Shown piece by piece: positions 6,466 to 58,310 of a stretch of DNA of 64,000 bases (position 1 is its first letter; every line of letters begins with the position of its first letter). The notes beneath the pieces were generated by a model, which saw only the letters and a program-made list of their open reading frames with translations, did not search any database and had not been told where the DNA came from. This stretch comes from Cyanophora paradoxa CCMP329. Taxonomy: Eukaryota; Plantae; Glaucophyta. The position numbers were made by a program, and so were the translations under genes. The stretch spans positions 84,460 to 148,459 of the forward strand of contig QPMI01000199.1 of assembly GCA_004431415.1 (NCBI GenBank). Reading direction: 5' to 3'.

Positions 6466-6945
6466 AAGTTGACTCACTTTTCATAAACATTTTGAACTCT
6501 TAGTTTCCTTGAATTTCTTAAGATGACTCAACTTAGTCAACTTAGTCAACTTAGTCAACTTTGTTACCATTATCAATCAGGGTGGACTCACTTTTAGATC
6601 AACTTTGAAATTTCAAGCAAAATCAACTTGGATTTCAAAAGTGGATCTTCTAAGTGGACTCAAAATGTTCACTTTGTGATACATGTTAGCTCAAATGCTT
6701 ACTGTTTATGGTCAGGGTTGACTAAGTGGGGGGAGTTGACACATTTTTTGAAATCCTTTTTAGAAAACTTTAGGCCCCAAATATTTCCTGTGAAATTTGA
6801 GTCAACTCAACCCACTTAGTCAACCCTTGCATTGAATTCGTAACAAAATCCATATACTTTTACTACTTTTACGATTAATATGAGTCAACCTTGAGTCCAC
6901 TTTAATATAAATATTATATAATAGGGGGAATCTAGGGGAGATGCT
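6466..6945 (+). repeat. PLV-A left TIR (480 bp), with 9-bp ACTTAGTCA repeats and many GAGTCAAC/GAGTCCAC motifs
   Basis: Reverse complement of 57831-58310; two mismatches seen. Confidence 0.95.
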
Positions 6946-7514
6946 TACTAAATGCAGTGTTAGATTGATGGATTCATATATGTAATCACGTTAATCGAAG
7001 CTATATAATACAGTGGATTATTCGATATCATAAGTGGATCGAATTGATAAGTATATGGTTAAAAATCGCGATTTTTGAGTTATAATCGAATTTAATCGAA
7101 TTATTTTGAATTTCAAAACTCGCTTTAATCGTAATAGCGATGTATACACATCGAGATTCGTATATGTGATTGCAAGTTATTGTTATGTATGATCTATTTG
7201 ATAATATTTCACCATCAGTGCATCGATTTGATAACGTCCTGGTGATCTATATTAAAAACTCACGTTTAATGCATTTTAATCGAATTTAAAATTAAAATTC
7301 AAAATCGGTTTCATCGCGATTTCGAGTCAGGGTTATCGAAATGTCGATATTATGAAATGCTCGATTTTATGACGTTTTAAGCGCATCGATTTGAGCATGT
7401 GGTGCTGAGATATCGCAGCAAACGTGAATATTGATTTTCCAGACGGGTACAGCATTAATCTAGAAAAAACCGCGTTTTTTTTTTACTTTTCAAGTTTCAC
7501 CGCGAACGAAGTAA

Positions 7515-7581
7515 AGGTTCCCGAGCGGATTTGAACTGCGACTCAGATATCCAAGCGTCTTAACCGCTGAGCCAAAAACAG
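7515..7581 (-). ncRNA. tRNA-derived, Pol III-like small RNA or tRNA pseudogene
   Basis: A box TGGCTCAGCGG (7574-7564), B box GTTCAAATCC (7536-7527), shortened anticodon hairpin, tRNA-like 3' end GGGAACCT. Confidence 0.4.
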
Positions 7582-7807
7582 TTCTTAGTCAAGTCGATTC
7601 CTGGGCTAGTGTTTCACCAAGTCCACTATGGCAAGTGACTTTTGCATCTTCAAACTGTTATATCTCATCACCAGATCATCAAAACGCAACGTTCTGCATA
7701 GCGCTGTGAAGCGCTTGATATGCTCTACAAGACTATGTGTATATCATATGCATATATGTATATCTGTCATACATATATTTGGAAAAAACGAGTTTTCGCC
7801 TAGCAAA

Positions 7808-9194
7808 CTAGCTAGTTTTGGTTCTTTCTCTTAGTGTTCTTTGAGGTTTAGGGGCTGTATATGACTCCTTAGTAGTCTGAAAGTCATTATACCATCTCTG
7901 GCTATTCACTTCTGAAAGTTTCTGTGTGCCTGCTATAGTGAGCTTTTTGAGTTCCCTGTTAACTTTCCCAGCCTTCTCCTTCCTAGCCTCTATCAAAGGC
8001 TTATCTGGGACTTCATTAGAAGCTTCTATGCCCTCTCTTCTTATAGCAGCATCAACCCTGGCTTCCTCTTTAGCTTGCTCTAAAGCATCTACTGTAGGGG
8101 TTTCCAGATACTCAATTGCATTCACAGGCAACAGCTCATGGAAAGCAAACCTGTTATCTATGATCTCTCCAGTGGGACTCTTTAGCTTAAACTTAAAGCC
8201 TTCCCTACTATCAACAGTGTAAACCATCCTAGACCAATTGTTACCCTGTTTAGCAAATGGGTTCTTCTCTACTTTCACTCTAACAAACATGCCAGGCTGC
8301 ATGGTATCAAGATAAGCTATTGATTTCTTGAACCTTTCATCTTCTAATCCCACTATATACCTATAATGCTCCTCTGTAGTTTCAACTGGCTTCATCTTAG
8401 TAGCTGAGTGAACTGTATTATTGTAATTATACTCAATATCACCTAACACATCAAAGAATCTAGCTGTATTATTGGCTATGCAGTAGTTTGTGATCAGTCT
8501 CTTAATCTGCTTGTTAAAGGCTTCAATTCGACCTTGGCTTCTGTGGTCTGCAGTTCCACTCACTTGGTGTTCTATGTATTTACTAGATAAAAAACTCCTG
8601 GAATATTCGATTTTGGAATTCACTCCCAGCATCTGATTGAACCTTTACTATGGGTCTTGCTACTCTCATCTCAAGCTGTTTAAATGCAGCTAATGTAGTG
8701 AGAGCTGATTTATCTCTGATAGGTATAATATACCCAGTTCTCAGTGTTGATTCCATTGCAGTCATAAAAGTATCATAACCATTGTTTTGTTTCTTATAAG
8801 CTGGGAAAAAGAGCAAATCAATCACATAGGTATCAAGGGGTTGCCTTATTGGGACCATGGGATCTCTCTTTCTAGATATAGCAGGTGCATTGATCTGAAC
8901 AACCTCTTGCTTTTTATAGAACTCTTGCAACTGCTTGTAGGATTCATCTGGTAACTCAGCCCTCATAGCTTGAAGCCCTTTGTAACCAGTTCTCACATCA
9001 TAGAATCTCTTGGCAATCTTGCTGGTTTCTTTCACTGCAATAGCAACTGGGATCTCTACTGGGACAAGCTCTTTCATCTCAGACTTTTTGACAATTCGAG
9101 ATTCCCCCTTTTCCTCCTTTGGAACTGTGATAGGCAGTAGGTTACCTTGCAGTTGCTCAGTGGTTCTCCTAACTATTCTTCCAGTTGCTGGCAT
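7808..9194 (-). CDS. rve (retroviral-type) integrase; +1 frameshift in a T run near 8590
   Basis: YVIDLLF / VQSDAGSEF / QGRIEAFN give DD35E when ORFs 8583-9194 and 7808-8632 are joined; YNNTVHSATKMKP. Confidence 0.92.
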
Positions 9195-9197
9195 CTC

Positions 9198-12100
9198 TTA
9201 ATTAAATGGAACAGAATTAATACCATCTGGTAAGATGTATCTCTTTGCATCAAAGCAATTTAGGGCAACCCTTCTACTCACAGTATCTATTATTGTGTGA
9301 TCTGCCCTTCTTTTCTGCTTTGCAGTCACAGTCTTGCTGATACCTGCAAATAAACACTCCTTAAAATCATTGAATTGGAGTTCCTCAGTGGAAGTTCCAG
9401 ATAGCTTACTTCTCTCAATCTCAGCTGTTCTGAAACTGTAAACTTTGGCTCTCAGACCTACATACTCCAGGATTGCAGAACCTGGCATCTCATTTTTGTA
9501 TTTACCTGGGGTCATTCTGGAATCACCTCCAAGGTCTAATGCATAGGATATATTCTCTATATCTGTTGCAAGGGTCTTAGATTCGATATATAGACAAAAG
9601 GAATCAGTATCATGGAATAGTAACTTTGCTTTTGACCACTGGGACCTTACAGTATCATAGAAGAACTTGTAGTTATGCAGTTTGGCTGCATCCAAAACAT
9701 AAGCCCCAATTGCAACAGGCTTATCTAGCTTCACATGCTTTGTGTAAAACTCAAAGGCAACTGCTCTTTCACTTATGGGACTTGTTGATTTCACTAAAGG
9801 AGAGGCTGCATATTTCATAAATAGCTTCTCAGTGTTGGCAATCTTAACCACAGATCGACCTCTACATGATTCAATGCATTTCCCATAGATTGAATTATTC
9901 ATGAGCTTATAGAAATCAGCCTCGAATTTATTCACTGCTTTCCTTCTCATATCAGTGTTCAGCTCAATGTAGGGTTTCATTACAGGAGCCACAGTAAATG
10001 ATAGGACCCTGTGAACCTTCTTTAGTTTCACACCTTTAGCTAACATGTATTGCAGAAGAGGCTCAGAAATCACATAGTTGGTCACAGAACCAAAGGTTGC
10101 AGTTAGCTTAGGGGTCTTATCAAGCTCTTCTCCTGAGAGATCCAATAGGCTTTTTTGATATTGTGATAATTCTGCATATTCTACTATTTTCTTGTTAATA
10201 ATTAGGGGGAAATCACTGTGATCTAGAAACAGCCTAATTGGGTAATCCAGATCAACTTCTAGGAAACTGGATCTGTTATCTTGTGGGTTGAATTCGGTCT
10301 CCCATCTAAAATCACCAACTGGGATTGGCTGACTCAAGCAGTAGCCATACAAGTTGTTAGCATCAAACAGCATAATATGGGAGTTCTCACCATCAGCCTC
10401 AGCATACCTACAGGGCATTGTTGCAAAGCCACCCCTGATTCCCCTCTCAACAAATTCGTATTGCTCTACATCACTAATAAGCTCTATTTTTGCCTTGGTG
10501 GTCCTTAACATAGCATCCCAAGATAACCCAGGGGCAGATACATAATGAACTGGGTCAAGTCCATATACTGAGTGTGAAAGCCTTCTAAAAGCCTGGAATT
10601 TGTTCATTAACTCAGTCACATCAGCAGCCCCAAAGTCCATAAAGTTACTTGCATCAATGAACTTGTAAAGACCCCATTGCAATGAAAGGTATTGATCAAA
10701 GTTTTTCGAAAGGATTTCGATTCGCTTTTTATCACCCATGCCTGCTATTTTTCTGAAAATGAATGTCCCACAGTCATCCATTTGGTCAACAACAACTGCA
10801 ACTTTGGTTTGCTTTGAGATTCTCCTATGAAGATTGCAGTTTCTGCATGCAGGAGCAATATAATTACCTGTGTGATGATCATGATCCCTGCATTTAAAGT
10901 TCTCCTTGGTGAACCTCTCACTGCAAAGGTAACAGTGTTTGGTAGCCCTATATACAGCTTTCTGCTCATCTGTGAGTTCATTCATGGGAATATTGGTAAA
11001 CAGAAAATCGATTAGTTCTCTTGCTTTGGATTCCAAGCATTCAAACAGACCTCCCATTGGATCCTGCCCCTCAAATCGAAAATTTTGAACATCTGCCCCA
11101 GTGACTACTCTGAGGTTGACTGCTGAGACTTCCCTCTTGGATTTCGATGCATCTATGGGGATGCTTCTATGTTCAATCTTGCAGTATACCACAACAGGAA
11201 GCCACACAGTTTTCCTGAGGTTTTTCAGTCCAAACTCTATGGTGGTCTCAGGCTTAGGAGTGATTCCCTTTGAGAGTCTCCAATCAATGCATCTGTTTGA
11301 GTCCACATGAGCAGTGAGTTTAGCCTCAGACCTGAATCGAGATAAGCATGTGTCACAGTAGTGTAACTTCTGATCATTGTATGTTTCATGGTTAACTTTC
11401 AATAGCCTTGAAAGGGACATGATTGTAATATAGTGACCATTCCCTTCATCATCAAATATCAGCATGAGATTAACCTTATGCTTTCTGCCTGGGTTACTTG
11501 ATTGATGCAGGGGATAAATAACCTCTCCATCGATTCCAAATATATTAATGCTAATGCCTGCATTTTGAGCCTCGAATTTATCAATTATTTCAGCATCACA
11601 GGCAACAGGGAATGGGATATTGTCGAAATTGAGAGCCAGCGGATTATAAGCGATTGCTGAGTATTTCCATTTGCGATACTGTGAAAGCTCATTCCTCTTA
11701 TGGGAGTTTATCGCTTTTCTGTGAATATATGCCAAAATTGCATTTTCGAAGCAGGAATCATCAATATTTCGAATATTTACTGTGGCTCTCTTCCTAGCAA
11801 TCCACTCTGGGGTTTGTAGAAAGCATCCACCTGTTGGAGCATAACTCATAATAGCCACTCTGAGTATTTCTATTCTCTCTAAGCGATAGCTATCAACCAC
11901 ATTCATCTGCTCCTGACACATTTGGGCTGCTTTATTCAGCTCAGTTCGAATATTTCTCGATCTGGTTAGTACAAAATAATCGCTGTAAATATATTTCGAT
12001 ATCCAAACCTGTGAATTGCTCACTTTTACGAACTTGCAGATAAAAGACAAGCGAACCTTGATTGCCCTGAATTGATCTAAACCCTGCTTTAATCGATTAG

Positions 12101-12443
12101 GAAGGGATGTAGCAATTCTGTCCAGGAATTCAATCACATCTACAACAACTTCCCTTCTGGCTCTGTAAGTGAGCCAGCGATATAATTCATTCATGGCTGT
12201 TCCATCTTCTGCCTCAGGCTCTATTTGCCTTAGGCGATCCAGTTCATCCAAGGTTTCAATTTTATCATATAGGTTATTTGCTTTTCTGGTTAATCTGGCT
12301 AAAGTGGGTCTACCCTTTGCAATTAAATCTATTTCCCGGTCATATTCAGCCTCTGTTATTTCATGGGCTGCATAAAGTGTTCCCAGCAATCCCATGAGTT
12401 CCCATTTCTTCTCCCTTATGAGTTTGTTGGTAATTCGGGGCAT
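9198..12443 (-). CDS. Protein-primed family B DNA polymerase with an inserted endonuclease VII-like Zn domain
   Basis: DANNLYG, KLMNNSIYGK, HDTDS, GLRAKVY; CYLC...RDHDHHTG...ACRNCN. Confidence 0.95.
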   Translation of the reverse strand: MPRITNKLIREKKWELMGLLGTLYAAHEITEAEYDREIDLIAKGRPTLARLTRKANNLYDKIETLDELDRLRQIEPEAEDGTAMNELYRWLTYRARREVVVDVIEFLDRIATSLPNRLKQGLDQFRAIKVRLSFICKFVKVSNSQVWISKYIYSDYFVLTRSRNIRTELNKAAQMCQEQMNVVDSYRLERIEILRVAIMSYAPTGGCFLQTPEWIARKRATVNIRNIDDSCFENAILAYIHRKAINSHKRNELSQYRKWKYSAIAYNPLALNFDNIPFPVACDAEIIDKFEAQNAGISINIFGIDGEVIYPLHQSSNPGRKHKVNLMLIFDDEGNGHYITIMSLSRLLKVNHETYNDQKLHYCDTCLSRFRSEAKLTAHVDSNRCIDWRLSKGITPKPETTIEFGLKNLRKTVWLPVVVYCKIEHRSIPIDASKSKREVSAVNLRVVTGADVQNFRFEGQDPMGGLFECLESKARELIDFLFTNIPMNELTDEQKAVYRATKHCYLCSERFTKENFKCRDHDHHTGNYIAPACRNCNLHRRISKQTKVAVVVDQMDDCGTFIFRKIAGMGDKKRIEILSKNFDQYLSLQWGLYKFIDASNFMDFGAADVTELMNKFQAFRRLSHSVYGLDPVHYVSAPGLSWDAMLRTTKAKIELISDVEQYEFVERGIRGGFATMPCRYAEADGENSHIMLFDANNLYGYCLSQPIPVGDFRWETEFNPQDNRSSFLEVDLDYPIRLFLDHSDFPLIINKKIVEYAELSQYQKSLLDLSGEELDKTPKLTATFGSVTNYVISEPLLQYMLAKGVKLKKVHRVLSFTVAPVMKPYIELNTDMRRKAVNKFEADFYKLMNNSIYGKCIESCRGRSVVKIANTEKLFMKYAASPLVKSTSPISERAVAFEFYTKHVKLDKPVAIGAYVLDAAKLHNYKFFYDTVRSQWSKAKLLFHDTDSFCLYIESKTLATDIENISYALDLGGDSRMTPGKYKNEMPGSAILEYVGLRAKVYSFRTAEIERSKLSGTSTEELQFNDFKECLFAGISKTVTAKQKRRADHTIIDTVSRRVALNCFDAKRYILPDGINSVPFN

Positions 12444-12504
12444 TATTCCTAACTTGTTCCTATTCTAAGGGGATATTTTATTTTAGGATGTTCTAAACGC
12501 ATTT

Positions 12505-12855
12505 TTAAAAAGTTTTAATGGATCCATTGGCTTCCTCTGAATGGAATCGCAAAAACCTGTTTATTCTAAATCTTGATTTCGGTTTTTGTAAATTTACTAT
12601 CCAAGGTTCAAACAGATACATGTAATATGCTTCTCTGTTCATTAGGTCTTCATGCCCACCCTTCTTACTTGAATATAAGACTGAGAACTTGACATCAGCA
12701 GCCTTACATAGGTCTGCTGTTGATGGCATTTGACCTGATTTGTGTTGTTTCCATCGGATTTGTACTTTTTGTGAGGTTCTCCCAATGTAAACTTTATTCA
12801 ATTCTTCACTCTCAATCATATAGATTGATCCAGAATCATGATCTGTTCCAGCCAT
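12505..12855 (-). CDS. GIY-YIG endonuclease
   Basis: SIYMI...VYIGRT...RWKQH...NRE. Confidence 0.85.
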   Translation of the reverse strand: MAGTDHDSGSIYMIESEELNKVYIGRTSQKVQIRWKQHKSGQMPSTADLCKAADVKFSVLYSSKKGGHEDLMNREAYYMYLFEPWIVNLQKPKSRFRINRFLRFHSEEANGSIKTF

Positions 12856-12981
12856 TTCTTACTTCTAACATATAAATATATTTTTCTATCTCTTAAATCA
12901 TTTTATGGAAATGGCTTAAAGCGAATTTGAAAAAAGGATATAGAGGAAAAATTTTTTCTTTTCTACTAGTAGAAAGGATCG

Positions 12982-13467
12982 ATGAATACCCAAGATATCA
13001 TAGAAACTCTGAAATCTTTGACCTCAATACCTGTTGAGGATGCCACAAGTATGTTTACTGATGCAACCAGAGATCTTTTAGATCGCTCATTGAATGAAGA
13101 CAAAATTTATGTGATTTCGTATACTGAAAAGCATGTCAAAATGTTTCATAACTTGAATTTGGTAAATGGATATTCTCCTGAGAGAAAGCAGCTTTGCTTT
13201 ATTCTCTTCAAAGACAGTGGTTACTTAGTTCCTCAATCGATTTCACAGAGTATACTGAAATCATTCTTACATGATGTCATCATATCTTTTGAGAGGGAAG
13301 AGGATAAAACATGTGTTATTTGTTTGGAAACTGATGAACCCCCAGGGACATGGAGTTGTTTCAAGTGTAATAGTCAAGTATGTGGTGACTGCACAGCAAA
13401 GCTGCCACCAAAAGATCAATTCAAATGTCCAGTATGTAGAAGTGATCTTAGTGTTAGGTTGACTTAG
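12982..13467 (+). CDS. RING-finger protein (possible E3 ligase)
   Basis: C-terminal CVIC...CFKC...VCGDC...CPVCR. Confidence 0.75.
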   Translation: MNTQDIIETLKSLTSIPVEDATSMFTDATRDLLDRSLNEDKIYVISYTEKHVKMFHNLNLVNGYSPERKQLCFILFKDSGYLVPQSISQSILKSFLHDVIISFEREEDKTCVICLETDEPPGTWSCFKCNSQVCGDCTAKLPPKDQFKCPVCRSDLSVRLT

Positions 13468-13640
13468 TGGGTGGAGTTGAGGCACTTTTTATTTCTTTTT
13501 AGGGCAGAGTCCTCTTTAAGAATCTGTGAAAAAATGAGTCAACTCCCCCCACTTAGTCAACCTAATCGATAAATAAACCAGAAATAAAAGACTGTTTGTG
13601 TCTTTTATGATAAATTTGAGTCAACTATGAGTCCACTTTT
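13458..13640. promoter_or_regulatory. Internal degenerate copy of the TIR core (candidate replication origin)
   Basis: GAGTCAACTCCCCCCACTTAGTCAAC and related motifs match TIR 6717-6825 in reverse orientation. Confidence 0.6.
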
Positions 13641-13648
13641 GAATAAAC

Positions 13649-16242
13649 CTAAACTTCAACATCAGAATCATAATCTGATGCATCAGGATCAGCAGCAGGT
13701 AGGTCTTGTTTCATTCTTGGATTGGCTTCTTCCTCAATAGTCTCATCATCTACAAGCTTCATCTTTCTGAATTCCTCAAATACTTGTGGGAATAGGAAAT
13801 GATAGTATTGTTTGCCATTTGTAGTTTTCACTTGAATATATGTAACACTTCTCATTTCAGTATAATATCTGCGACTATTATAATCGTTTTTATATTTGTT
13901 GCTGGTAATGAACTCCTGGAACCACTTCCAGGTTTCCACAAGGCTACCAGACTTGCATTTATTCTCGGAAATTAAGCCTCGATCCACAAGCCACTTAGTG
14001 AACATAAGGATGATTGGAGCGCACACCTGTTGGGCTAAATAGTATTTATTTGTAAGGGGTCTATCAGCAATCCAGTTCACATCCTCACAGTCAACTTTGG
14101 TTCTCAAATAGTGGGCAATGTTTCGAATATTGCAGTGATCATTTAGCCATTTAACAAGTGGAAGGAAGTATGACCTATCCTTTGCGAATTTCTTACTAAC
14201 TTCAACAACCACAAATCGCCTATCTCCAGCTTCAATTTTCACTGGAATATTGTTATTGCTGGTGAATATAATCCTGGCAAAGTTGCTTTTTGTGTATGAA
14301 TCTATCCCTTTGTGTTCAATAACAATCTTATCAGAAGTAATGAGATCTTTAAGCATATCATTGTTTTCGAATGTGTCCTTGCCTGAGGCTTCATTGACAA
14401 CAATCAAGATCTTATCCTCTCTATTGTGGGCAAATCGACCAAACAGATCCTCTTTTGGCTTTCCAGTTGCATAACTCAGGGCATCTCCAAGTGTCTTCTT
14501 TTGGAAAGTATCGACCAACACATTCTTACCAGTTCCTTGTTCACCAATGAAGATTAAGGATACTCCATTGAGTTCCCCAGGCTTTTGCAGCATGTGGGCA
14601 AACCATTTCAACAGATATTCATAGGTATTTTGATCCTCACCAGACATTAAGAACAGGTGATCTAGGAAAGGCTTTATCATGTCAGCAGTAACATCTTCTG
14701 GAGCATTTTCGAATTGCTGGTGGTCAACCTTCATTCCTGGATAGAGATTAAATACAGACTTGCATTTGGCACTGAGAGTAGCAGGAGGTGGGAGGAAATC
14801 CATGTAAGTTGATCTTGTGGCTGTTGGATCCACAATCCATTTCCTAAATGATTGCTCCCATTTCTCTTTCTCATTATCTGTCCCCTCATTCACAATCACC
14901 TTATGCATCAAGTGGGGGAAATGCTTTGTAGAGAGCTTCCCAATATCTTTTGGCATCCAGCAAAGTAGTTGTTCATCCCAGAGCATCACACAACCAACAT
15001 TTTCAACATGATGCATTCGAGCATTGAAATACCTCTTATGCACATTGTAATGTTCAGCCAAAGGAGGGATACTTGCAGTCTTGTAATCGATTTCATCTGT
15101 GTCCTCTGGTAGGAATGCATACTTTTGGGGAAGAGTTCCTTGAAAAGCTCATTGTTATCTTTGCTCAACCAATAAACCAAGGATTTGAAGGTCAACACTT
15201 TGCCAGGCTCAGCCTTCTTCTTGCTTCTGCGAAGCTGTGTAAACTTCTCCTGGCATTCATCATAATCATACTTGTCACTCTGTTCTGAGAATTGGTGGAA
15301 GAGTTCAGCTTGCATTTTAGGGGTGAATTTGTTGTCTTCCCCAACATTGATGATGACCAGTCCAACATCAATCCAAGTCTTATACTCATTAGCTCTCTCA
15401 CCATTCAGACCCATTATAACACTTTGTAGCAGTTCGAAAGTAACAGGATTTTCGGGTTCAGTGTCTTTTTCAGCTTCTACCTTCTCAGTCTTCACTTTAT
15501 CACTTTTTGGCTCCTTTTTAACTGGTTTTGGCTCAGGGCTATAATTTGCGAATGCAGAAACATTCGATTCATCCACAAGTTTAGTAGTAGCTGAGAAGTA
15601 AGATACAAAGAAGTCCTCATTTCGCATTAACACTTTGTCACAGTCAACGAATTTCTTAAAGCAAACGTTTTTATCAACATCTTTTTTCGATTTATTTTGA
15701 GCATCCAGAGTCTCACCTTTGCAGCAATTGAGGCAGATAAGGTTCTGTGTGGAGCTGTAAACTCCACTGTCATAATCCTCATTTTTCACCAATCCCATAG
15801 CTTTGAAAAGCTTGGGGATATCTTCATGTTTGCATGCAAGCGATTTAATGATAAAGTGGGCTGAGATCTTGAACTTGGTGACATCCTCCTTGATCAAATA
15901 AACCCTTCTATGGCGAACTGCAACAGCAATATCGTTAATCGAAGTGGTCCCAGATCGCTTCCATAGCTTATCTCTCATCTCTCTTACAACAGTTTCCGCC
16001 TCAGCATAGTTTTCAGCAATGTTCTCCTTCAAATCAGCGAATTTATCCAGGTCCAGGTAAACTCTGGTGACTTGTTCAGGCTGAATGCATTCAGCCCAGG
16101 TCTTAACCTTGCTATTATCAATGGCTTCAAGGGCATCTTCGGCAGAATCAAATACATGGGTGACCTTGTTGCGATCACCAATGAGAGTACTAAGGAATGT
16201 AGCATTTTCAACAGGTGTGGCGAATTTCTCGATTTTGTTCAT
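13649..16242 (-). CDS. AEP primase - PriCT-2 - SF3 (D5-like) helicase; frameshift in an A run near 15122
   Basis: YLDLD, SAH, DSGVYS; EYKTWIDVG...FSEQSDKYD; GEQGTGKN, VVNEA, FTSN, DRRF. Confidence 0.9.
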
Positions 16243-16460
16243 ATTCGATTTTGGGGGACTTCTACCTTTAACGAAGAAAATAATTTCGGAAGGAGGAATT
16301 GTCTTTTATATATATCCTATTATTTGCCAAGTCCTTAAGTAGTTTTGGGTCGGGATACTGTCTCGATAAATAGATACAGTTTTAAAAAAGAGGGAAGAAA
16401 GCTGTCATTTTTTTGCCTCCGATCAAATCGATTTCTACAAAATTTGTTTCGATCGAGAAT

Positions 16461-17441: not shown

Positions 17442-17463
17442 ATCTCTAATAAAACAGAGATAA

Positions 17464-18198: not shown

Positions 18199-18226
18199 TG
18201 TATCTTTATTAGAATGAGAGATAATT

Positions 18227-48491: not shown

Positions 48492-48541
48492 TTATTATAG
48501 GAAGAGAAAAACAATTTATATATGTATCTCGCATGTTGTTT

Positions 48542-49057: not shown

Positions 49058-49063
49058 AAGCCA
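49058..49063 (+). repeat. Right target-site duplication AAGCCA
   Basis: Identical to 24305-24310. Confidence 0.95.
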
Positions 49064-52000
49064 CCAGAAGGAGACCTAGGAAACTCAAAACCAGTGGCAC
49101 TCATCCAGATATACCTTCTAGGTTTGATAGTGGTCGATTGATTTTCAATGTTCAAGATGAGCAGGGCAAACAGAACACAGCTTTGCGAATTTACAATGAG
49201 GGCAGCACTGCAAAAGCAGAGGTCCCCCAAGTATTGCAAGTGGGTCCCATTGCCAATACAAATCAGGTCTCCTACACAAATGATGTCTACCCCAAGGATA
49301 TTACATATGACTTTGCGAGGAATGAGCCTTTTGGGTTCTTTACTCCAAAAGATGTCCATCAAAAAAAGCCATCAATTACAATCAACAGTAGCCCCAGTCA
49401 ACCAGTAGCAATCCATTTACATCCTGATCTTGTTGAAATGGATAGGCACCTTTTGCCTTTGTATAGCAATGTGAAAGACCTTGGAATTCGAACCAGGCAA
49501 TGGCGAAATATCCATGGCAGCAATGTGTATGCAAATGGTGAGAAGCTTGTAAGTGAGAAGACCATAAGAGAGATCTTTGAGTATTATGGACCTGTCCCAG
49601 TTCCCTTCCCTCTTCCATGGGATCCACCGGATTTAACACCGAAAAAGCAGCCTGGAAGAGAATACACAGCAACTGAAGATGTAGCCTTTGGGCAGCATAT
49701 TGTTAGTTGGGAGCAAGTTCGCAATAAACCTATAATTGAACCAAGAAAGCAAATAGATGAGCAGTATTTACCTCCTGAAGTCGACATATTAGAGCTTGAT
49801 GAATATCAATTCGTTCCAGATAAGGAGGAGTATTTACCAGATGGTTTTGACCCACAAGAATATGAATATGATCAGTTTGACCCCAATGAGGAGGAGATAC
49901 TACCAGATGGCTTAGATCCACAAGAGTTTGAGTATGAGCAGAACTATGAACCTGATGAGGAGTATTTGCCAGATGGTCATGATCCACCAGCTGTTGACTA
50001 TGAGCAACCTTATGAACCCCATGAGGAACTATTACCAGATGGATTTCGACCTGAGATCTGGGAGTTCTTTCCTGATTATGAACAAATTAATAATAAACCT
50101 GCAAAGTATCCCCCAGAGGATCACAATCATGATTGGGATGAGATCTTAGGCAAACCTCAAAAGTATCCACCAGAGGACCACAGGCATGATTGGGGAGAAA
50201 TTGATGGAATACCAGAAGAATTTCCACCAATCAAACATGAACACACTTGGGATGAGATTAATGACCAACCAGAATTCGCAAAGGTAGAGCCTCTTGATAA
50301 CTTGGGGGTTTCTCTTTATCAGACTTGTAATGTCCCAGAAAGAATCTTTTTGAATGAACACTATGTACATGTGAATGGGACACTTGCAAATTCAGCTATG
50401 AGAGGACCACTTCATATTAGGACACTACCAGGCTCTTATAATCCACCACCTGAACCAGGAGCGACCATACCAAATATCTTTGTGTCAAGCTACATGGAGG
50501 CTGACATTCCCACAGATACATTCAGAGTCCCAACAGACCCAGCAACCTACCAAAACTTTAACTCTGCTATACAGGTTCATGTTGCAGATGTAAGCAGTTT
50601 AGATGGCTCAAGACCAATGATAGTTTTCAGTCGAGATAAATATTCCTACATTCCCATAGTGGGAACTGCAAATGATAACTATGGGAGGGCAGAGCTTGCA
50701 TGGATCAAAACGAATTATGGTGGGGTTCTTGAAGCCAATCAAAGAATGGCTGCAAAAAACATACACAATGAGAGCATTTCGAGAGTAGTCACAGAGGATT
50801 ACCTTACTGCAGTAATCCTTGTTAATTTTGTAACCCTTGCTATGCTTGATCAATTTATTACAGAAGCTGAACTTGCAGCAGAACTATCCAATTATCTCCC
50901 TCTTGTGGGTGGGACAATCACAGGAAACCTCACAGTTAATAGTAATATTTACAGCAGCAATATAGAGACCAGCAACCTAAAAGTAAATGGAATCCTCACA
51001 ATTGGCTCTTGCAATTTCAATACCATGAATCAGGTTTACGAAGAATGGTATGATGTCCCACCAAGCTTTGATCCAGCATCAAATATCTCGAACTGCATTT
51101 TTGCTTGGAAGGCATCAGGAGTACCAGGTCAATCAGCAATGTATACAACTATAGTAAGCAGAGTCCCGAATTCAGTTGTTCCAGACTTGTTTATCTCCGG
51201 AGCCAGTTCCTATTACACCAATCCCGAAATCAACAACCAAGTTAGTGTTTCAAGCCCAACAGGCACTTTTTATGCATATACCTCTGCTACAAGAACTATT
51301 GATTTCTCAAATGGGCTTACATTTTTCTTTGTGGGAAAATATCATCCAACTGCCTCTTCTATGCAAGTTCACTTGAGACTTTACAGAAGCGCCTTTCCAT
51401 CACGATATTGTTATTATGGGGCAACATCTTCTACTGCTATTGGAATGAACCAGTTCACTATTAATGGAGCATCCCAAACCCGCCCAGTTATAACAGTTCC
51501 TTCTTTAATAAATACATGGTATTACACTGACCAAACAATTACTTCCAGCAGCTACACAGTCGGGTTAAATGGAGTAGATATTGAAACACTTGTAGGAACA
51601 AATTATCTACCAGATAATACTGTCAATCATTTCGGATTTGGTAATATTGTGAATGGTGGTATTTCCGAGTTGATTGTTTTCAATAGGGCTTTGACAACTT
51701 CTGAAAAGAATGCTGTGAGGTATTACATTCAACAAAAATAAGGATTCACTCATACCCAGACTCTGAATATTTACAGAGGATTAAAAATAACCTCACCTGA
51801 TACTGTAATAGATTACCTTACAGTTACAAGCAATGCAAATTTACCACATCATCCAACCTCTAATGTGGTTCAAGGTTGGATTCAAAATCACACTCACACA
51901 AAAGCCCAGATTACAGATTTTGACCACACCCATGCCTGGTCGAATATTGTAGATAAACCTTTGACCTTCCCTCCCAGTTCTCACAATCACTTATGGGAGC

Positions 52001-54843
52001 ATATCACAGACAAGCCATTGACATTCCCTCCCAGTTCTCACAATCACTTATGGGAGCATATCACAGACAAGCCATTGACATTCCCTCCCAGTTCTCACAA
52101 TCACTTATGGGAGCATATCACAGACAAGCCATTGACCTTTCCACCTGTTGCTCACACTCATGATTATTCCCAGATCACCAACAGTAACCACACTCATACT
52201 AAATCAGAGATCACAGATTTTGATCACACACATTTATGGGAGCATATCACAGATAGACCACTAACATTCCCTCCTGATTCCCATACTCATGATTATTCCC
52301 AGATCACCAACAGTAACCACAGACACCCTTGGAGTGAAATCGACCAGCAGCCCAGGTTTTCATCAGCAGGCAATATTTTGACAGACTTTACAAATGGTGT
52401 GAGTCTCTACCAGAGTAATACCATACCTGAAAGGCTACAACTAAATGATTATTATGTCAATCGAAAAGGCATTGATGGAGGGACCACAATGGAAGGTGAA
52501 TTATACATCAAACAACCAACAAGAATCCAAATGATTTCAGCAGGTGGTGTTGGGGTGATTGATACCAAACCAGGCATCTTCTTAACAAGTTATTATAATG
52601 AGGACATCCCATTGACATCAGGATTACCACCTCTCCCATCTGATCCAGCAGCATATGATGACAAGGATGCCATTATGCAAGTAAATGTAACAGATGTCAG
52701 TGCAACTGATGGCTCCAGACCTAAAATAATATTCAGTCGATCCAAATTCAATTATGTCCCACTTGCGGGACAACCATCAGATAACTATGGGAAATGCGAA
52801 ATGTCCTGGATTAAAACATTAGCAGGAGGAGCCTTAGAAGTCAATCAGAGGATGGCAGCAAAAAACTTACACAATGAGACCCTCTCTGGTGTTGTTACAG
52901 ATGATTATTTAGAAAACAAAGATTATGTAACAAATACAGAATTACAATTAGCTCTTACAGATGTTGTAACAGATACCGAATTAACAGCAGCTCTTGGGAA
53001 TTATTTACCTCTTACAGGTGGAACTGTAACAGGAACTGTGAATGCTACCACTTTACAAATTGGTGGAACCACAATACCAAAAGGTTACGATTTCGACCAA
53101 TTAGATGTGGTTTCGACAGATAGAAGCGCAAATAATTGGAACTTAGGATGGACACCAAGAACCGGACAAACAGGATGTTATACAACACCACAAAATGATG
53201 AAGATTGTAGCGCTTGTTGGATGAGGTGGAATGTCCCCACAGGAATGAAAACGTTTTATATTCAAACCATGTGTTGGTCTAATTGTAGATATTTTGACAT
53301 CTATGGTCAAACAGCTAATGGTAATCAACATTTCCTTCGGCGTTTAAATGTTTATCAAGGTATTCAAGCATCAGTACATGATGGAACACAATCCAGTATA
53401 CTTTTCATCTCTATTAACTGTGAGTTTTACACAAAAATATATGTTCAAGGTCGAAAAGGTAGAATCCATCTTACAGGTGTTTTTGGGTGGAGTAGACAGA
53501 GGGCAACAGATAATGAGGTTGGGATGATCTCTTGGGATAATATATTTAGTAAACCATCATTTTACTCAACCGCAGACCTTCCACAAACCGCAACATGGGC
53601 AACAAATGCATGGTTAAAATCAGTAGATGCAGTCGAGCGAATTTGGTTTGGAAATGGTCAAACTACATATATTCGAGGCTATGAAAATGGCGATGGTGTA
53701 TCTGTCGAATTTAGAAACTCAGCGAATGCAGCAATCTTAAAATCATATGGTAATGGTAACTTTTGGGTGAATAACACTATTACAGCACCCACTATTAATG
53801 CTACTACCAAACTCCAAATAAACGGTAATGATGTCCCAAAGTTTCACACAGCAGATAAAACAGTAGGAGGTATTGCATTTAATAGATGTTCTGAGGGTTG
53901 GACATGGGCATGGAGTACAGCATGGGATCCATATTATAATTATGGTTCATATGTCCATAATAATCAATCTGATGACGAAACTTCTACCGCTTGGATTGAC
54001 TTCGATATACCCGATGGATACCACACAGGAACAGCATTTTTAACCTATTTACCTTGGACTAACTCACGACTTTTTGAAATTTGGGGAGTTAATAGACAAG
54101 GGAATGAAGTTTTTATTACATCAGTGAATAGTTATCAACCATACGCCACATCGCCTGATGGTAACCACAGTGGTTTAAATAATGTTCCAATACATCTTGG
54201 AAATAGATTCCTCACTATTCGGATTAGACCAAAGATTGGAAGAGTTCATATTATGGGTATTAGTTACATGAAAATTTGGGTAGGAAATAGTTATGGTGGT
54301 CACACCGGCTATATTCATTGGAATAACGTTTATAGTAAACCAAATATCTTAACAGGAACTGTGGGGACTTGGTTTAGTTCAAGTGATGGATACCATCGTA
54401 TCCATTTCGGTAACCAAACTTCTACATATTTGAAAGGAGGGGGAGATATTCCCCTTGTATTCCGAAATGAACAAGATACTGATATTTGTTACATGTATCA
54501 TGGAGGATGGATGTGGATTGGAGGTTATTTAACACAAGGAAGTGACATAAGATACAAAACCGATATTAAAAAGATATCCGGCGCTCTTTCAGCAATAGAG
54601 AAATTAGAGGGAGTGAGTTTTAAACGAATTGGAAGTGAAAAAGATGGAGTTAAATTAGGTTTAATTGCACAAGATGTTCAAAAGGTAATACCAGAGGTAG
54701 TTAATGTTAAAAAAGACGATGGCTACCTATCTCTTGAATACACAGGTTTAATTCCAGTTCTCATTGAAGCTGTGAAGGAGTTGTCCCAAAAATGCAAAGA
54801 TCTACAGGATCAAATAGACCAAATTAAAAATGTCAAAGTATAA
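49064..54843 (+). pseudogene. 3' part of the PLV-A giant fibre gene (phage tail repeats, LamG-like domain, C-terminal peptidase S74 chaperone), one in-frame TAA at 51739-51741
   Basis: ORFs 49138-51741 and 51865-54843 share one frame with a single stop; HNHLWEHITDKP repeats; SDIRYKTDI...GLIAQDV..VIPEVV...LIEAVKEL. Confidence 0.85.
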
Positions 54844-54846
54844 TAA

Positions 54847-55152
54847 ATGGCGACCTATCCACTTGGTGGAACCACCTATTCAACTGAGCCTGTTGCGCTT
54901 TCTTTTGACACAATCACCCTTATAAACGCATTACAAACAGTTGAAAAAACGATTCAGCAAACCAATAAGCTCTCACCAGTTGTAAATGAATACAAAACGC
55001 TTTTGGTTAATGTCCTTGCAAAATCTGCATATGGTGACCCTGTAGCTAAATACACTGAATGTGATAACAACATCAAAGCAATGACATCTAACCTTCAAAC
55101 ACTTTCAGTTGCCTACCAATCCCTTGGATCGAATTTAATCACTTTGGCTTGA
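54847..55152 (+). CDS. Hypothetical protein
   Basis: ATG ORF packed directly after the fibre gene. Confidence 0.6.
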   Translation: MATYPLGGTTYSTEPVALSFDTITLINALQTVEKTIQQTNKLSPVVNEYKTLLVNVLAKSAYGDPVAKYTECDNNIKAMTSNLQTLSVAYQSLGSNLITLA

Positions 55153-55191
55153 TTGCAGTTTATTTTTCTTTTCTTCTTAGTAAAAGAAGCA

Positions 55192-56037
55192 ATGGGTGAA
55201 TATAATCGAGTTCAACTTCCAATATATTCCCTTGGATCCCCTGCTATGCATTTTCGCCAGCATGAAGTAAATGATGAGGTTCGTGGTTTAGAATCCACAG
55301 AGAGACCCAACTCCAATGGTAACTCCTTTGATAAAAATTCGATTATTCGAGTTAAAGAGCTGAGAGCTGATAAGAATTCAGGTGTGGTTAAAACAACTCG
55401 ACTTCTTGTCACAAATGCAAACTTCTTCCAACCAACTAATGGAGGTCCTGATGCTTACAGTGTTGATCTGAAAGCCCTTGATTTCGATAAGAATTCTGCT
55501 GCTGTTACTGTGAGATCAGGAGGAGCTTTTATTGGTGGAGGTTGCAGAGTTTCAGGTCAGCTTTCATCCTCAATTTCGTATAATGATGTCCCAGATACTC
55601 TTGAACAGAATGTTGAAGACCCCCAACGAATTCGATTATATATACCAGTTGCACAACAGCCACTTATTCAATTTTACCAAGGTTATACTGTCACACTTGA
55701 AAACTCTGAATTGATTGAAGGAACCAAAAGAGTAATGAGAGGGCTGGTCATTCCTTCTGCAATGCTTTCTTTATGTAGAGCCAACAATAACCAGCCAGGT
55801 CACAGATACAATTTCAATGTTCAAGGATATGATCATTTTGGCACAGGGTTCTGTGTTTATAATAACAATTTCACCTATGATCTGTTTGTTACAGATATTG
55901 GAAAATATACAATTACAGTTATGGGTATCAGAACAGATATAGCTGCTGTCTCAGCTCTAAGAGGTGTTACTCCTGATACTCTTTCTCAAACAGGGTTTTA
56001 CCAAGAGCCAGATGTAATTGATGACCCAACCCCATAA
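55192..56037 (+). CDS. Fibre-like protein with shared N-terminal module
   Basis: RVKELRADKNSG...VRSGGAFIG matches 25156 and 26179. Confidence 0.72.
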   Translation: MGEYNRVQLPIYSLGSPAMHFRQHEVNDEVRGLESTERPNSNGNSFDKNSIIRVKELRADKNSGVVKTTRLLVTNANFFQPTNGGPDAYSVDLKALDFDKNSAAVTVRSGGAFIGGGCRVSGQLSSSISYNDVPDTLEQNVEDPQRIRLYIPVAQQPLIQFYQGYTVTLENSELIEGTKRVMRGLVIPSAMLSLCRANNNQPGHRYNFNVQGYDHFGTGFCVYNNNFTYDLFVTDIGKYTITVMGIRTDIAAVSALRGVTPDTLSQTGFYQEPDVIDDPTP

Positions 56038-56060
56038 AAGATATATCCCTTTAATGTAAA

Positions 56061-56894
56061 ATGGCTGAGCAACCCCCACTTGAACGAATTATCACCCCAC
56101 AACTATCATTAGCTGCACCTGCAAACCATGTTTTACAGCATGCTACCTTTGATGATGTGGAAGGTCTCCAATCCACAGAGGTCCAACCTACAATGAACAC
56201 CTTTGGTTCCACCCACAAGCTGAGATTACAGGAACTCAGATGTGATAAAAATAATGGAATAGTTAAGACAACTAAGCTACTTGTCACAAATGCAAACTTT
56301 TCTGCTCATTATGGAGACCCAGATAGCTATGGAGATCCTCTGTCTACTTATTCTTTTGAATCTAGGTCGGGAGCTATTAACTGCAAATCGGGGGGAGCTT
56401 ATATTGGTGATGGTCTTAGGGTTGGTGGGGCTGTTGGAGCGCCTCTATTTGTGAATGATCAACCCAATCCCATTGATCCCAACACAAGAATTCGAACCTA
56501 TGTCCCCAGCATGAATGCCCCCTATATAATCAAGATATTCCCCATTGTTGTGAATGAACAAACAGCAGTAGTAGACTCTCTTGTTGAGATTGGTGACCAC
56601 TACAAGGTTGTTGTTGATATCCCACCAGATGTTTATGCTGTATGCCAAGTTGAAGGTGGAACTCCCAACTTTGCAGTAGTGATCACCCCATATGATAATT
56701 TCGGAATTGCTTATCATGGAGTCAATTTCGGTTTGGAAGACTATCAGTTCTTAGTGAGAGCCACCAAGTTTGGTATCTACAAATGTGTGATGTTTGCAGA
56801 GAGAACCGATTTTATTGCAAAGCAGAATACCTATGCTGAATACTATGGGACAAATCGATATTTCCCCATTTTCGGGCAGGATACTGCTCCATAA
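56061..56894 (+). CDS. Fibre-like protein paralogue
   Basis: RLQELRCDKNNG...KSGGAYIGDG. Confidence 0.72.
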   Translation: MAEQPPLERIITPQLSLAAPANHVLQHATFDDVEGLQSTEVQPTMNTFGSTHKLRLQELRCDKNNGIVKTTKLLVTNANFSAHYGDPDSYGDPLSTYSFESRSGAINCKSGGAYIGDGLRVGGAVGAPLFVNDQPNPIDPNTRIRTYVPSMNAPYIIKIFPIVVNEQTAVVDSLVEIGDHYKVVVDIPPDVYAVCQVEGGTPNFAVVITPYDNFGIAYHGVNFGLEDYQFLVRATKFGIYKCVMFAERTDFIAKQNTYAEYYGTNRYFPIFGQDTAP

Positions 56895-56916
56895 GAATAT
56901 TGGTTATATATAGAAT

Positions 56917-57189
56917 ATGGATAGTAAAACAAAAAAGTTTATTGATGCTGCTATGACAGTCCATGGTAAAGACAAATTCGATTACAGTGAGACACATTAC
57001 ATTAAAGCTCAAGAGAAAGTATCTGTTAGATGTTTGCAGTGTAACAAAGTGATCCTTACCTATCCCTTTAATCATGTGAAGGGATCAGGGTGTAGGGACT
57101 GTAATAAAAGAAAAAGTCAAGCACATAGGAAAAGGGCTACTTCATCAATAAGAGTAGAGTATAGGGATATTTGCATTAGGTTCGATTAG
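56917..57189 (+). CDS. Zn-ribbon protein (DUF723/homing-endonuclease-associated repeat)
   Basis: FIDAA..VHG..FDYS...Y......C..C....P.NH..G.GC..C. Confidence 0.65.
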   Translation: MDSKTKKFIDAAMTVHGKDKFDYSETHYIKAQEKVSVRCLQCNKVILTYPFNHVKGSGCRDCNKRKSQAHRKRATSSIRVEYRDICIRFD

Positions 57190-57218
57190 GTTTAATTAAT
57201 TTTTCTAAGGTATTCTTA

Positions 57219-57617
57219 ATGGAGACTCAATACAGAGGCTTTCATGTTATGCTTGATTACAAGGCTAAATCAGCTATTGCAACAGGACATGAGCATGTGA
57301 GCTTCCTAGGTAATTGGATTATGGGAACCCTTGAACAAGCAGTATTAAGACAAGGCATTAGGATTGTTCATAAACACTGTGAGATATTTGATGGCAAAGT
57401 ATCACCTCCTGGTTTTGCATTGGTTCTGCTATTAGATGAAAGCCACTGTACAGCTCATTGTTATTCCAATGAAGGCATGTTAGCAATTGATATATTCAGT
57501 TGTGGTAAAGAAGCTCAGCATAAAACACAAGCAGTAGCAGATGAGATCGATAAAACAATGAATTTCCTCACATTTGAGAAGACTGAGAGACATAAACATG
57601 ATAGATTCCCGTTTTGA
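57219..57617 (+). CDS. S-adenosylmethionine decarboxylase (SpeD/SpeH-like proenzyme)
   Basis: GFHVMLD, PPG, LLDESHCTAHCY, AIDIFSCG. Confidence 0.9.
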   Translation: METQYRGFHVMLDYKAKSAIATGHEHVSFLGNWIMGTLEQAVLRQGIRIVHKHCEIFDGKVSPPGFALVLLLDESHCTAHCYSNEGMLAIDIFSCGKEAQHKTQAVADEIDKTMNFLTFEKTERHKHDRFPF

Positions 57618-57830
57618 TGAGTTTCTATAATGATGTTTTAAAGGATTCCTTTGTTTTCTAACAATAACATTGAGCAGCTACTGTTACAAGAGGATATAAT
57701 ATATCCTTTTCCTACAGTAGCTTACTACAATAGAAATTCTACTGTATGATGTAGCCAAAATATGACTACACCTTAGACTTGCATATGTTAAATTTCGAAT
57801 ACTATTCGATTTCCTTTACAATAAACCCTC

Positions 57831-58310
57831 AGCATCTCCCCTAGATTCCCCCTATTATATAATATTTATATTACAGTGGACTCAAGGTTGACTCATATTA
57901 ATCGTAAAAGTAGTAAAAGTATATGGATTTTGTTACGAATTCAATGCAAGGGTTGACTAAGTGGGTTGAGTTGACTCAAATTTCACAGGAAATATTTGGG
58001 GCCTAAAGTTTTCTAAAAAGGATTTCAAAAAATGTGTCAACTCCCCCCATTTAGTCAACCCTGACCATAAACAGTAAGCATTTGAGCTAACATGTATCAC
58101 AAAGTGAACATTTTGAGTCCACTTAGAAGATCCACTTTTGAAATCCAAGTTGATTTTGCTTGAAATTTCAAAGTTGATCTAAAAGTGAGTCCACCCTGAT
58201 TGATAATGGTAACAAAGTTGACTAAGTTGACTAAGTTGACTAAGTTGAGTCATCTTAAGAAATTCAAGGAAACTAAGAGTTCAAAATGTTTATGAAAAGT
58301 GAGTCAACTT
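57831..58310 (-). repeat. PLV-A right TIR
   Basis: Inverted copy of 6466-6945. Confidence 0.95.

Follow-up and report, generated by a model that had tools for sequence, protein, structure and literature searches.

Polinton-like viruses (PLVs) are operationally defined by a double jelly-roll (DJR) major capsid protein (MCP), an A32 ATPase and a minor capsid protein (mCP) on 15-45 kb of DNA (Bellas & Sommaruga 2026). The Tlr1 element combines an rve integrase with a vOTU-palm-SF1 helicase replicase that has no exonuclease, lacks the first Asp of motif C and ends in a C-terminal homing nuclease (Krupovic et al. 2024, PMC11161782). In Halocafeteria seosinensis, 5 PLVs and 9 virophages are embedded in other viral elements; replication modules are swapped there as well, and one element carries both a protein-primed polymerase B (pPolB) and a D5 primase-helicase (Haro et al. 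2026, 10.64898/2026.07.28.741278).

Capsid genes of the glaucophyte Cyanophora paradoxa have been catalogued before. Table S2 of Bellas 2023 (PMC10120064) holds gene_37737 and gene_3321, nearly identical to the inner MCP described below, gene_64235 and gene_47449 (= P0001), close to the outer MCP, and a third, more divergent MCP type; HHpred matches of the Cyanophora MCPs are to DJR capsids of iridoviruses and phycodnaviruses. Tables S2/S4 assign 366 matches (272 + 94) in a 99.9-Mb assembly to MCP clusters MMPC 21 and 29, which are labelled "new" and bear no group name; the available portions of the main text do not mention Cyanophora and describe no nesting of its viruses. Table S6 of Bulzu 2025 (PMC12220804) counts A32 in 139, rve in 85, lipase in 89, AdoMet_dc in 66, pPolB in 49, SF1 helicase in 34, S74 in 37 and Dam in 10 of 156 glaucophyte elements, with protease and MCP-VIR at 0. 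The text of that paper reports patatin-discoidin fusions and a PTR-PTR-H-lectin fibre in C. paradoxa; in its available parts the glaucophyte set is tabulated only, with no analysis of synteny, twin pentons or nesting. At the level of cataloguing, these entries largely refute the "possibly undescribed" family of the first-pass annotation. Our literature search turned up neither a name for the lineage nor a class to which it is assigned. Classification of PLV lineages is under way, and the glaucophyte lineage has, in the parts of these sources available, been counted but never placed; a cultured alga with hundreds of copies would make placement and induction tests practical.

In the window, the whole 64,000-nt stretch of C. 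paradoxa DNA analysed here, a 24.7-kb inner PLV (24311-49057) sits within a related outer PLV of about 27.1 kb (6466 to about 58344). Very probably these are two related endogenous PLVs; the rve integrase of the inner one likely placed it in a fibre-cluster gene of the outer, leaving a 6-bp target site duplication (TSD). The locus is a clean example of an already known kind, nesting having been reported in another protist; it differs from the H. seosinensis nests (10.64898/2026.07.28.741278) in its host, in the synteny of the two nested relatives and in a documented empty site. It unites steps thought to drive PLV mosaicism: one element nested in another with a clean TSD, a capsid module combined with either of two replicase types, a second replicase beside an internal copy of the terminal inverted repeat (TIR), and end genes that are optional. 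All of these have been reported from other protists before.

The insertion site and the ends of the elements

The boundaries of the nest are as follows (TIRs are unstranded).
1-6465 (-): LTR retrotransposon, Ty3/Gypsy-like, abutting the outer left TIR (RVT_1 E=3.9e-33); 5' LTR about 5623-6465, gag-like ORFs 2951-4392, protease-RT ORF 250-1800
6466-6945: outer left TIR, shortened; 132-nt hairpin 6705-6836, z=-6.1
24058-24310 (+): 5' part of the split outer fibre-cluster gene; 3' part 49058-51741
24305-24310 (+): left TSD copy, AAGCCA; right copy 49058-49063; empty site in public contigs
24311-24826: inner left TIR, 516 bp, ends 5'-GCTCG; hairpin 24660-24745, z=-4.9
48542-49057: inner right TIR
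57831-58344: outer right TIR, adjoining a tandem repeat and possibly clipped

The two inner TIRs, 516 bp each, show 0 mismatches, and the hexamer AAGCCA flanks the inner element on both sides as a 6-bp TSD. Frame arithmetic puts the two halves of the split outer gene in one phase, so that without the interruption it would encode 976 aa; both halves match the inner gene at 28888-32613. In a public-contig comparison covering the window outside 25500-39000, empty-site loose ends lie at 24308 in contig sets X1, X2 and X4, and a 246-nt X18 contig bridges the empty site with 70 nt from the left, 176 nt from the right and a single copy of the hexamer. Other copies of the outer element commonly have this site empty. 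Nesting of one PLV in the other, as the first-pass annotation had it, is thus well supported by the TIRs, the TSD, the in-phase split gene and the empty site.

Both families are present in very high copy, as thousands of short contigs, none of the four insertion junctions is bridged among the public contigs listed, and indels of the window that are absent from public contigs fit long-read errors. An assembly chimera of the two repeat families would account for these points. It is nevertheless highly improbable: a misjoin is not expected to produce a TSD, whereas here both flanks carry the exact 6-bp duplicate, the TIRs have 0/516 mismatches, and an independent contig has the empty site with one hexamer copy.

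We retain true insertion of the inner element. Its completeness as a TIR-bounded element, claimed for both viruses, holds; that of the outer one does not, its left TIR being shortened, an LTR abutting it and no TSD being visible at its ends. The outer TIR arms (6466-6945 and 57831-58310) match over 480 bp with 2 mismatches. The right TIR continues to about 58344, with a loose end behind that position in 2 X2 contigs, while the corresponding left part is missing and the LTR starts at 6465, exactly where a public contig stops in X1-X4. X2 contigs reach 9 nt further left of the outer left TIR, matching the right end. The LTR ends are TGTTAAGGCCGT / CACGGCCATAAC, followed by TGG, and the retrotransposon, which we take to be Ty3/Gypsy from its PR-RT order, likely inserted into the outer left TIR. 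Integration of the outer element by its own integrase is putative, since no TSD of it is visible; a 10-bp repeat at its ends was rejected as a TSD since it lies within TIR-derived sequence. The copy has frameshifts in the outer integrase (about 8589), the outer primase-helicase (about 15122) and an inner mCP (35020-35945); at the two outer indels the window departs from public contigs. With its fibre gene split and an LTR element inserted in its left TIR, the outer copy has probably been disabled.

Shared gene order and differing replicases

Genes of the outer element:
7808-9194 (-): rve integrase (rve E=0.0033 on the N-half), frameshifted near 8589, with a 1-nt difference in public contigs
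9198-12443 (-): pPolB, 1081 aa (DNA_pol_B_2 1.2e-12, Endonuclease_7 9e-4)
12505-13467: GIY-YIG nuclease (-) and RING-finger gene (+), by Pfam
13450-13650 (+): internal, diverged direct copy of the left-TIR hairpin region, which folds (z=-6.9)
13649-16242 (-): primase (PriCT-2)-SF3 helicase (PriCT_2 1e-9, DUF5906 9e-21; PHROG primase 1.7e-24), frameshifted near 15122
16461-18198 (-): AT-hook pair, CC-motif and coiled-coil proteins (AT_hook weak in Pfam), homologous to inner 38234-40041
18227-19009 (-): A32-like packaging ATPase (Pox_A32 5.6e-11)
19075-20442 (-): MCP, 455 aa, 33% to the inner MCP and 59% to P0001 (Cyanophora paradoxa)
20496-22468 (divergent): candidate minor-capsid (penton) pair, DUF5901 weak
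22458-24014 (-): patatin-discoidin fusion (Patatin 1e-20, F5_F8 1.9e-6)
49058-57617 (+): remaining genes, i.e. split fibre gene, S74-chaperone fibre (Peptidase_S74 2e-15; tail-fibre PHROGs), paralogue pair 55192-56894, small nuclease-like gene and AdoMetDC
57219-57617 (+): AdoMetDC within this group (AdoMet_dc 3e-11)

Genes of the inner element:
24870-32613 (-): fibre cluster of an 87-aa gene, two C1q proteins, a PTR/H-lectin fibre and a 1241-aa protein (Pfam C1q, PTR, H_lectin)
32657-35945 (both strands): patatin(-discoidin) and divergent candidate mCP pair, the mCP at 35020-35945 frameshifted
35993-37306 (+): MCP, 437 aa, predicted double jelly roll
37365-40041 (+): ATPase (Pox_A32 1.7e-10), coiled-coil, CC-motif and AT-hook genes, by BLASTP to the outer ones
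40211-44521 (+): Tlr1-like replicase, 1436 aa, with likely vOTU, PolB palm, SF1 helicase and C-terminal EndoVII/HNH
44717-45922 (+): rve integrase, intact (rve 6e-14)
45962-48491 (unstranded): accessory end with DUF5710, AdoMetDC (46302-46694), a 32-bp tandem array and a Dam-type methylase

Both elements have the order integrase, replicase, AT-hook, CC-motif, coiled coil, ATPase, MCP, divergent mCP pair, patatin and fibre cluster, the inner one in opposite orientation. Reciprocal BLASTP upholds this synteny, which had been proposed from the first reading, at 20-54% protein identity (integrase 32/38%, AT-hook 50%, CC-motif 54%, coiled coil 27%, ATPase 36%, MCP 30-33%, mCPs 20-32%, patatin 37%, AdoMetDC 45%), and at the DNA level similarity is limited to three short matches in the fibre repeat. 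AdoMetDC is indeed present in both, but at the fibre end of the outer element and the integrase end of the inner one. The discoidin part of the patatin/discoidin gene, likewise ascribed to both, is Pfam-significant in the outer only, the inner protein aligning over its full length by BLASTP. Nor are the proposed family markers exclusive: twin mCPs occur in Trimcap B, AdoMetDC in cryptophyte PLVs and patatin-discoidin in rhizarian PLVs (the latter two from Bulzu 2025, PMC12220804). The capsid-ATPase-lipase block is the core, and replicases and TIR-proximal genes turn over.

The TIRs and replicases differ between the two elements, as was first noted. The outer virus pairs pPolB, which has likely vOTU Cys/His residues and an EndoVII-like insert (motif positions; Pfam), with a primase-helicase. 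The replicase of the inner virus is a Tlr1-like helicase-polymerase, which hhalign does not match significantly to the outer pPolB (probability 1.3%). PHROG profiles recognise a Dda-like helicase (7e-13) and EndoVII (2.6e-9) in the inner protein, and an alignment with four homologues shows conserved C349/H453, D648, K788, TD 900-901, GKS about 990 and DE, H453 being H in 4/5 rows and P0011 being without the region. The protein thus combines vOTU Cys/His residues and PolB palm motifs A-C, motif C lacking its first Asp, both by motif only, with an SF1 helicase and a C-terminal homing nuclease. The rve and replicase architecture is that of the Tlr1 element (PMC11161782), which resides in a ciliate, unlike the glaucophyte pair.

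Several genes appear optional. A joint skipping 12906-13457 removes the RING gene in 4/4 public runs, and joints skipping about 47701-48528 and 46716-48531 in public contigs remove the inner Dam-type methylase. Some members of the outer family likely lack the outer primase-helicase, its summed depth in X1 being about 4,000 against 10,000-25,000 for the core, although depth is not copy number. The internal TIR-hairpin copy of the outer element may drive replicase swaps. The window gave no tRNA or Rfam matches.

Capsid proteins and class membership

The AF2 model of the inner MCP, from an alignment of 7 sequences (pTM 0.75, pLDDT 68), predicts a double jelly roll: its top Foldseek matches are DJR capsids (SGIV 7.5e-20, TM 0.65; PBCV-1 2.6e-18), and the Sputnik MCP ranks 47th in the PDB (TM 0.55). 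Few PLV capsids are present in PDB/BFVD. Of the two MCP folds first proposed, the inner is thus supported by Foldseek and Atlas, and that of the outer is suggested by its 33% identity to the inner MCP, its single-sequence AF2 model (pLDDT 34) having no usable fold. None of the 7 members of the MCP family belongs to a Pfam family, an MCP profile gave two chance matches only against PDB sequences, and just 6 relatives were found among 1.84 billion protein representatives. Locus scans with short exact patterns, for the MCP in IMG/VR and JGI contigs and separately for the ATPase and for the patatin, returned no relatives, a weak form of absence. Judged by eye, the inner MCP differs from gene_37737 at 4 positions in about the first 190 residues; such near-identical MCPs and the named homologue P0001 make C. 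paradoxa or a close relative the likely host. The 272:94 split of MMPC 21 and 29 was rejected as an outer:inner ratio despite a similar depth ratio; clustering at 25% could merge both MCPs, and the third MCP type of Table S2 would also have to be accommodated.

The divergent pair are candidate pentons, two per element. A profile of the 4 mCP candidates has PBCV-1 P1 as its best PDB match (E=0.014, modest), and Atlas gives matches at 0.97 with clusters of Sputnik V18/19 and DUF5901, with recognition below threshold; these modest scores support the twin mCPs of the first reading as candidates. An adenain-type maturation protease, noted as invisible at that stage, did not emerge either: no protease family was found by Pfam among 45 proteins, nor a His-Asp/Glu-Gln-Cys motif in any frame of at least 100 aa. 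The accompanying statement that PLVs lack the protease is too general, as Gosseviruses have one.

MCP fold, A32 ATPase and rve domains bear out PLV identity and rve integration. The pair shows a DJR MCP (inner model), Pox_A32 in both elements, lengths of 24.7 and about 27.1 kb, TIRs, rve and a replicase. Maverick-Polintons likewise have pPolB + rve, a trait of Polintoviricetes (here in the outer element only), TIRs and a short TSD; they differ from the pair in the protease, which neither Pfam nor the motif scan found here, in their canonical pPolB, replaced in the inner element by the Tlr1-like fusion, and in their termini, which are 5'-AG in Polintons and 5'-GC here. The virophage (Virophaviricetes) combination of MCP and protease is absent, with Sputnik 47th and no protease found. 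Table S4 of Bellas 2023 (PMC10120064) places the C. paradoxa MCPs outside its Mavpol and GKS1 columns.

Instead of ordinary PLVs, the elements could be dwarf viruses related to NCLDVs, of a Mriyavirus-, Zora- or Zephyr-like kind, which we consider possible though rather unlikely. The best folds for the inner MCP are from NCLDVs, above Sputnik (TM 0.65-0.66 vs 0.55), the top match of the penton profile is PBCV-1 P1, and Zephyr viruses carry PolB-SF1 fusions and lipases. In Bulzu Table S6 (PMC12220804), the glaucophyte row alone of 19 host rows has mCP1-NCLDV matches (15), and MCP-POL detects 2/156 glaucophyte elements. PLV MCP models in general, however, resemble NCLDV capsids (Bellas 2023, PMC10120064), for which reason the fold matches were rejected as a class assignment. 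VLTF2/3 and HUH endonuclease families are absent by Pfam among the 45 proteins, although Zephyr viruses often lack both too. In a tentative extension that we hold to be equally doubtful, the unnamed deep capsid lineage would be a glaucophyte-resident integrating branch of NCLDV-related small viruses, with two different pentons, one shared promoter signal (reflecting one helper giant virus or a host factor) and replicase modules exchanged at internal TIR-hairpin copies and by nesting.

Putative life style and a shared upstream motif

Taking the elements as PLVs, and judging from their genes alone, each virus would build an icosahedral capsid (MCP, two pentons, A32 ATPase, fibres and an entry lipase) without a maturation protease, replicate by protein priming with pPolB or the Tlr1-like replicase, and integrate by rve. 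The viruses may plausibly depend on a giant-virus helper. The nesting is probably a by-product of high virus load, because AT-rich resident viruses are frequent, tolerated targets.

A satellite or hyperparasite relationship, in which the inner family would target preferred sites in the outer and use a transcription signal common to both, and perhaps one helper, seems distinctly unlikely. The nest is a single event, the inner virus brings a complete set of capsid and replication genes of its own, other outer copies commonly have the site empty, and elsewhere nests form with no targeting known (Haro et al. 2026, 10.64898/2026.07.28.741278). In line with such targeting, both viruses share the motif AAATTATTTTCT, whose 6 matches (1.05 expected) all lie sense-upstream of genes; its core WTTTTCK, a motif chosen post hoc, precedes 14/38 genes, against 1.8 in shuffles and 2 antisense.

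A virus inserted in a virus, with target-site duplication and empty site

The inner element (24311–49057; 24,747 bp) is bounded by terminal inverted repeats (TIRs) of 516 bp (24311–24826 and 48542–49057) with no mismatches, while the outer TIRs (6466–6945 and 57831–58310) are 480 bp long with 2 mismatches. The GC content is 57–58% in the flanks, 39% in the outer and 44% in the inner element. The hexamer AAGCCA immediately flanks the inner element on both sides. An ORF starting at 24058 is interrupted by it; both pieces share phase, yield 976 aa when joined, and each matches the inner element's first fibre-cluster gene.

Contigs from public sequencing runs were compared with the window over 5600–25500 (X1–X4) and 39000–58420 (X1–X3 and X18). 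Contigs from X1, X2 and X4 continue at 24308 with the sequence that lies beyond the inner element's right end, and a 246-nt X18 contig spans 49058–49233 preceded by 70 nt of left-flank sequence, which implies a single hexamer copy at that site. These contigs therefore show the empty site in other outer-family copies and a target-site duplication (TSD) of exactly 6 bp. None of the contig pieces listed from these five runs bridges the insertion junctions themselves. Misassembly is disfavoured by the TSD, which a misjoin would not be expected to make. TIRs, TSD and empty site thus bear out the first-pass annotation in placing one TIR-bounded element inside another, and the insertion of one Polinton-like virus (PLV) into another, from a catalogued yet unnamed glaucophyte lineage, is genuine. 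It looks recent because the inner TIRs are identical, and looks younger than the outer insertion. The inner ends (24311, 49057) read 5'-GC...GC-3', versus TG...CA in retroelements; Polinton termini, unlike these, are AG...CT.

Shared gene order and predicted capsid proteins

Reciprocal BLASTP recovered the same gene order in both elements, in opposite orientation and at 20–54% identity, and DNA similarity is confined to three short matches in a fibre repeat. A32 ATPase, rve integrase, patatin and AdoMetDC occur in both, AdoMetDC at opposite ends of the elements; no maturation protease was found in either. The replication proteins differ. The outer element encodes pPolB and a separate primase-SF3 helicase; the inner one encodes a 1436-aa protein that combines conserved Cys/His residues and PolB-like motifs, in which the first Asp of motif C is missing, with an SF1 helicase and an EndoVII-like tail, as in the Tlr1-like architecture of Krupovic 2024 (PMC11161782). 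Common order, shared AdoMetDC, differing replicases and lack of a visible adenain-type protease had all been proposed from the sequence and hold here.

The MCP had no Pfam match. Its profile retrieved 6 proteins among 1.84 billion representatives: P0001 from Cyanophora paradoxa (59% identity to the outer MCP), P0002 (61% to the inner) and four at 23–28%. The lineage reaches beyond this host, as shown by distant MCP relatives (P0003, P0004, P0008; 23–24%) on ENA/Logan contigs of up to 15.5 kb. A double jelly roll is predicted for the inner MCP, as had been anticipated: the model from 7 sequences (pTM 0.75) matches the capsids of iridovirus and PBCV-1 (E 7.5e-20, TM ~0.65). The best match of a four-sequence profile of minor capsid protein (mCP) candidates was the PBCV-1 P1 chain, the penton (E=0.014), and Atlas points the candidates to Sputnik V18/19 and DUF5901 clusters. 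By these matches the candidates are likely pentons.

With ≤1 mismatch allowed, the motif AAATTATTTTCT is found 6 times, at 16275, 16807, 35953, 39603, 40172 and 45932; 1.05 occurrences are expected, and none of 100 shuffles gave as many as 6. Each copy is in sense orientation and no more than ~60 nt from a start: primase-helicase and AT-hook in the outer element; MCP, AT-hook, replicase and DUF5710 in the inner. Of 38 genes, 14 have its core WTTTTCK upstream, compared with 1.8 in shuffles and 2 in antisense; the statistics are optimistic since the motif was chosen post hoc. Both viruses carry AAATTATTTTCT although they have almost no other DNA similarity, which suggests a common transcription machinery, of host or helper.

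Paralogue pairs at 25156–27267 (inner) and 55192–56894 (outer) share an N-terminal domain (32–36% identity); their C-termini, C1q in the inner pair and without assigned domain in the outer, may be swappable tip domains. The S74 fibre frame (51742–54843, plus strand) is open for 249 codons ahead of its first ATG, right behind the stop of its upstream paralogue, possibly through an indel or read-through; contig joints occur between the two genes.

Relation to catalogued lineages

The family had been thought possibly undescribed. No published name was found, and to that extent the proposal stands; its MCPs and gene set are already catalogued. In Bellas 2023 (PMC10120064), the inner MCP has near-identical counterparts and the outer one close ones; C. 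paradoxa MCPs are assigned there to two clusters, 21 and 29, each labelled "new" and given no name, and PLV MCPs in general are likened to NCLDV capsids. In Bulzu 2025 (PMC12220804), which names patatin-discoidin and PTR-H-lectin, 156 glaucophyte elements have the same gene set (Table S6), and three cryptophyte rows likewise carry AdoMetDC. According to Bellas & Sommaruga 2026, Trimcap B has twin mCPs and Zephyr viruses have PolB-SF1 fusions; a term search of the accessible text gave no mention of Cyanophora. Oxyrrhis 2025 (PMC12721341) and Starrett 2021 were also compared. Full-text literature searches, mostly covering papers outside subscription, gave no name or class for the lineage; bioRxiv supplements (HMM sets, genome lists) may place it. 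Haro 2026 (10.64898/2026.07.28.741278) reports 14 nested viral elements, and a 2026 mosaicism preprint, one of whose elements bears the C. paradoxa assembly prefix, treats tandem integration and replicase swaps. The pair is a further example of known PLV nesting.

Optional genes and the ends of the outer element

Public contigs skip the RING gene (12906–13457) in 4 of 4 runs and the Dam methylase (~47701–48528) in 3 of 4, and the fibre genes have many joints. Between AdoMetDC and Dam methylase of the inner virus lies a 32-bp GC-rich tandem array (47202–47489) that is missing from some copies. The outer core has a summed X1 contig depth, which is not a copy number, of 10,000–25,000. The primase-helicase reaches ~4,000, the RING gene 560 and the inner replication region 3,500–6,400; the thinnest contigs among those listed had 31–39. 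From this depth both families are multi-copy and the primase-helicase is likely present in only a subset of copies. The outer TIR hairpin recurs in direct orientation between RING and primase-helicase (13450–13650), diverged in sequence but with its pairing conserved. This copy may be what remains of a left end, or a site of recombination through which the integrase-pPolB block is exchanged; the mosaicism preprint describes replication modules bracketed by repeats.

The 366 MCP matches in 99.9 Mb point to hundreds of resident copies. Virions bearing fibres and lipase would enter the cell, their DNA would be copied by protein priming and integrated by rve, and because so many copies are resident some insertions would fall into other viruses, at little cost to the host.

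The outer element had also been called complete. This applies to the inner one only: the left TIR of the outer element is truncated, and no TSD is visible at its ends in the window. Its right TIR extends beyond 58310 to ~58344; the counterpart is absent on the left and present in X2 contigs (9 loose letters before 6466). Contigs end precisely at 6465 in 4 of 4 runs (X1–X4), where an 843-bp minus-strand LTR begins (short inverted ends, then TGG), followed by gag-like and protease-RT ORFs:

1–6465, minus strand: Ty3/Gypsy-like LTR retrotransposon, its 5' LTR starting exactly at the truncation point of the outer left TIR

The simplest reading is that this element inserted close to the outer TIR tip, and a three-layer nest of LTR element, outer virus and inner virus is likely. 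Of 20 Ngaro insertions reported by Hackl 2021, 4 lie within virophage TIRs. The LTR-to-gag spacing is ~1.2 kb, and a contig joint inside the LTR omits 5741–6415.

The outer integrase and primase-helicase are frameshifted, and public contigs differ by 1 base at those points; the frameshifts may be assembly errors, which Bellas 2023 notes for regions of this kind. The outer right end adjoins a tandem repeat via a tripled 16-bp unit, where two X2 contigs continue differently from the window. Rfam and tRNA searches of this GC-rich array (58344–64000) gave no match; it consists of 1.3–1.7-kb units with 149-bp sub-repeats and one 29-bp palindrome per unit.
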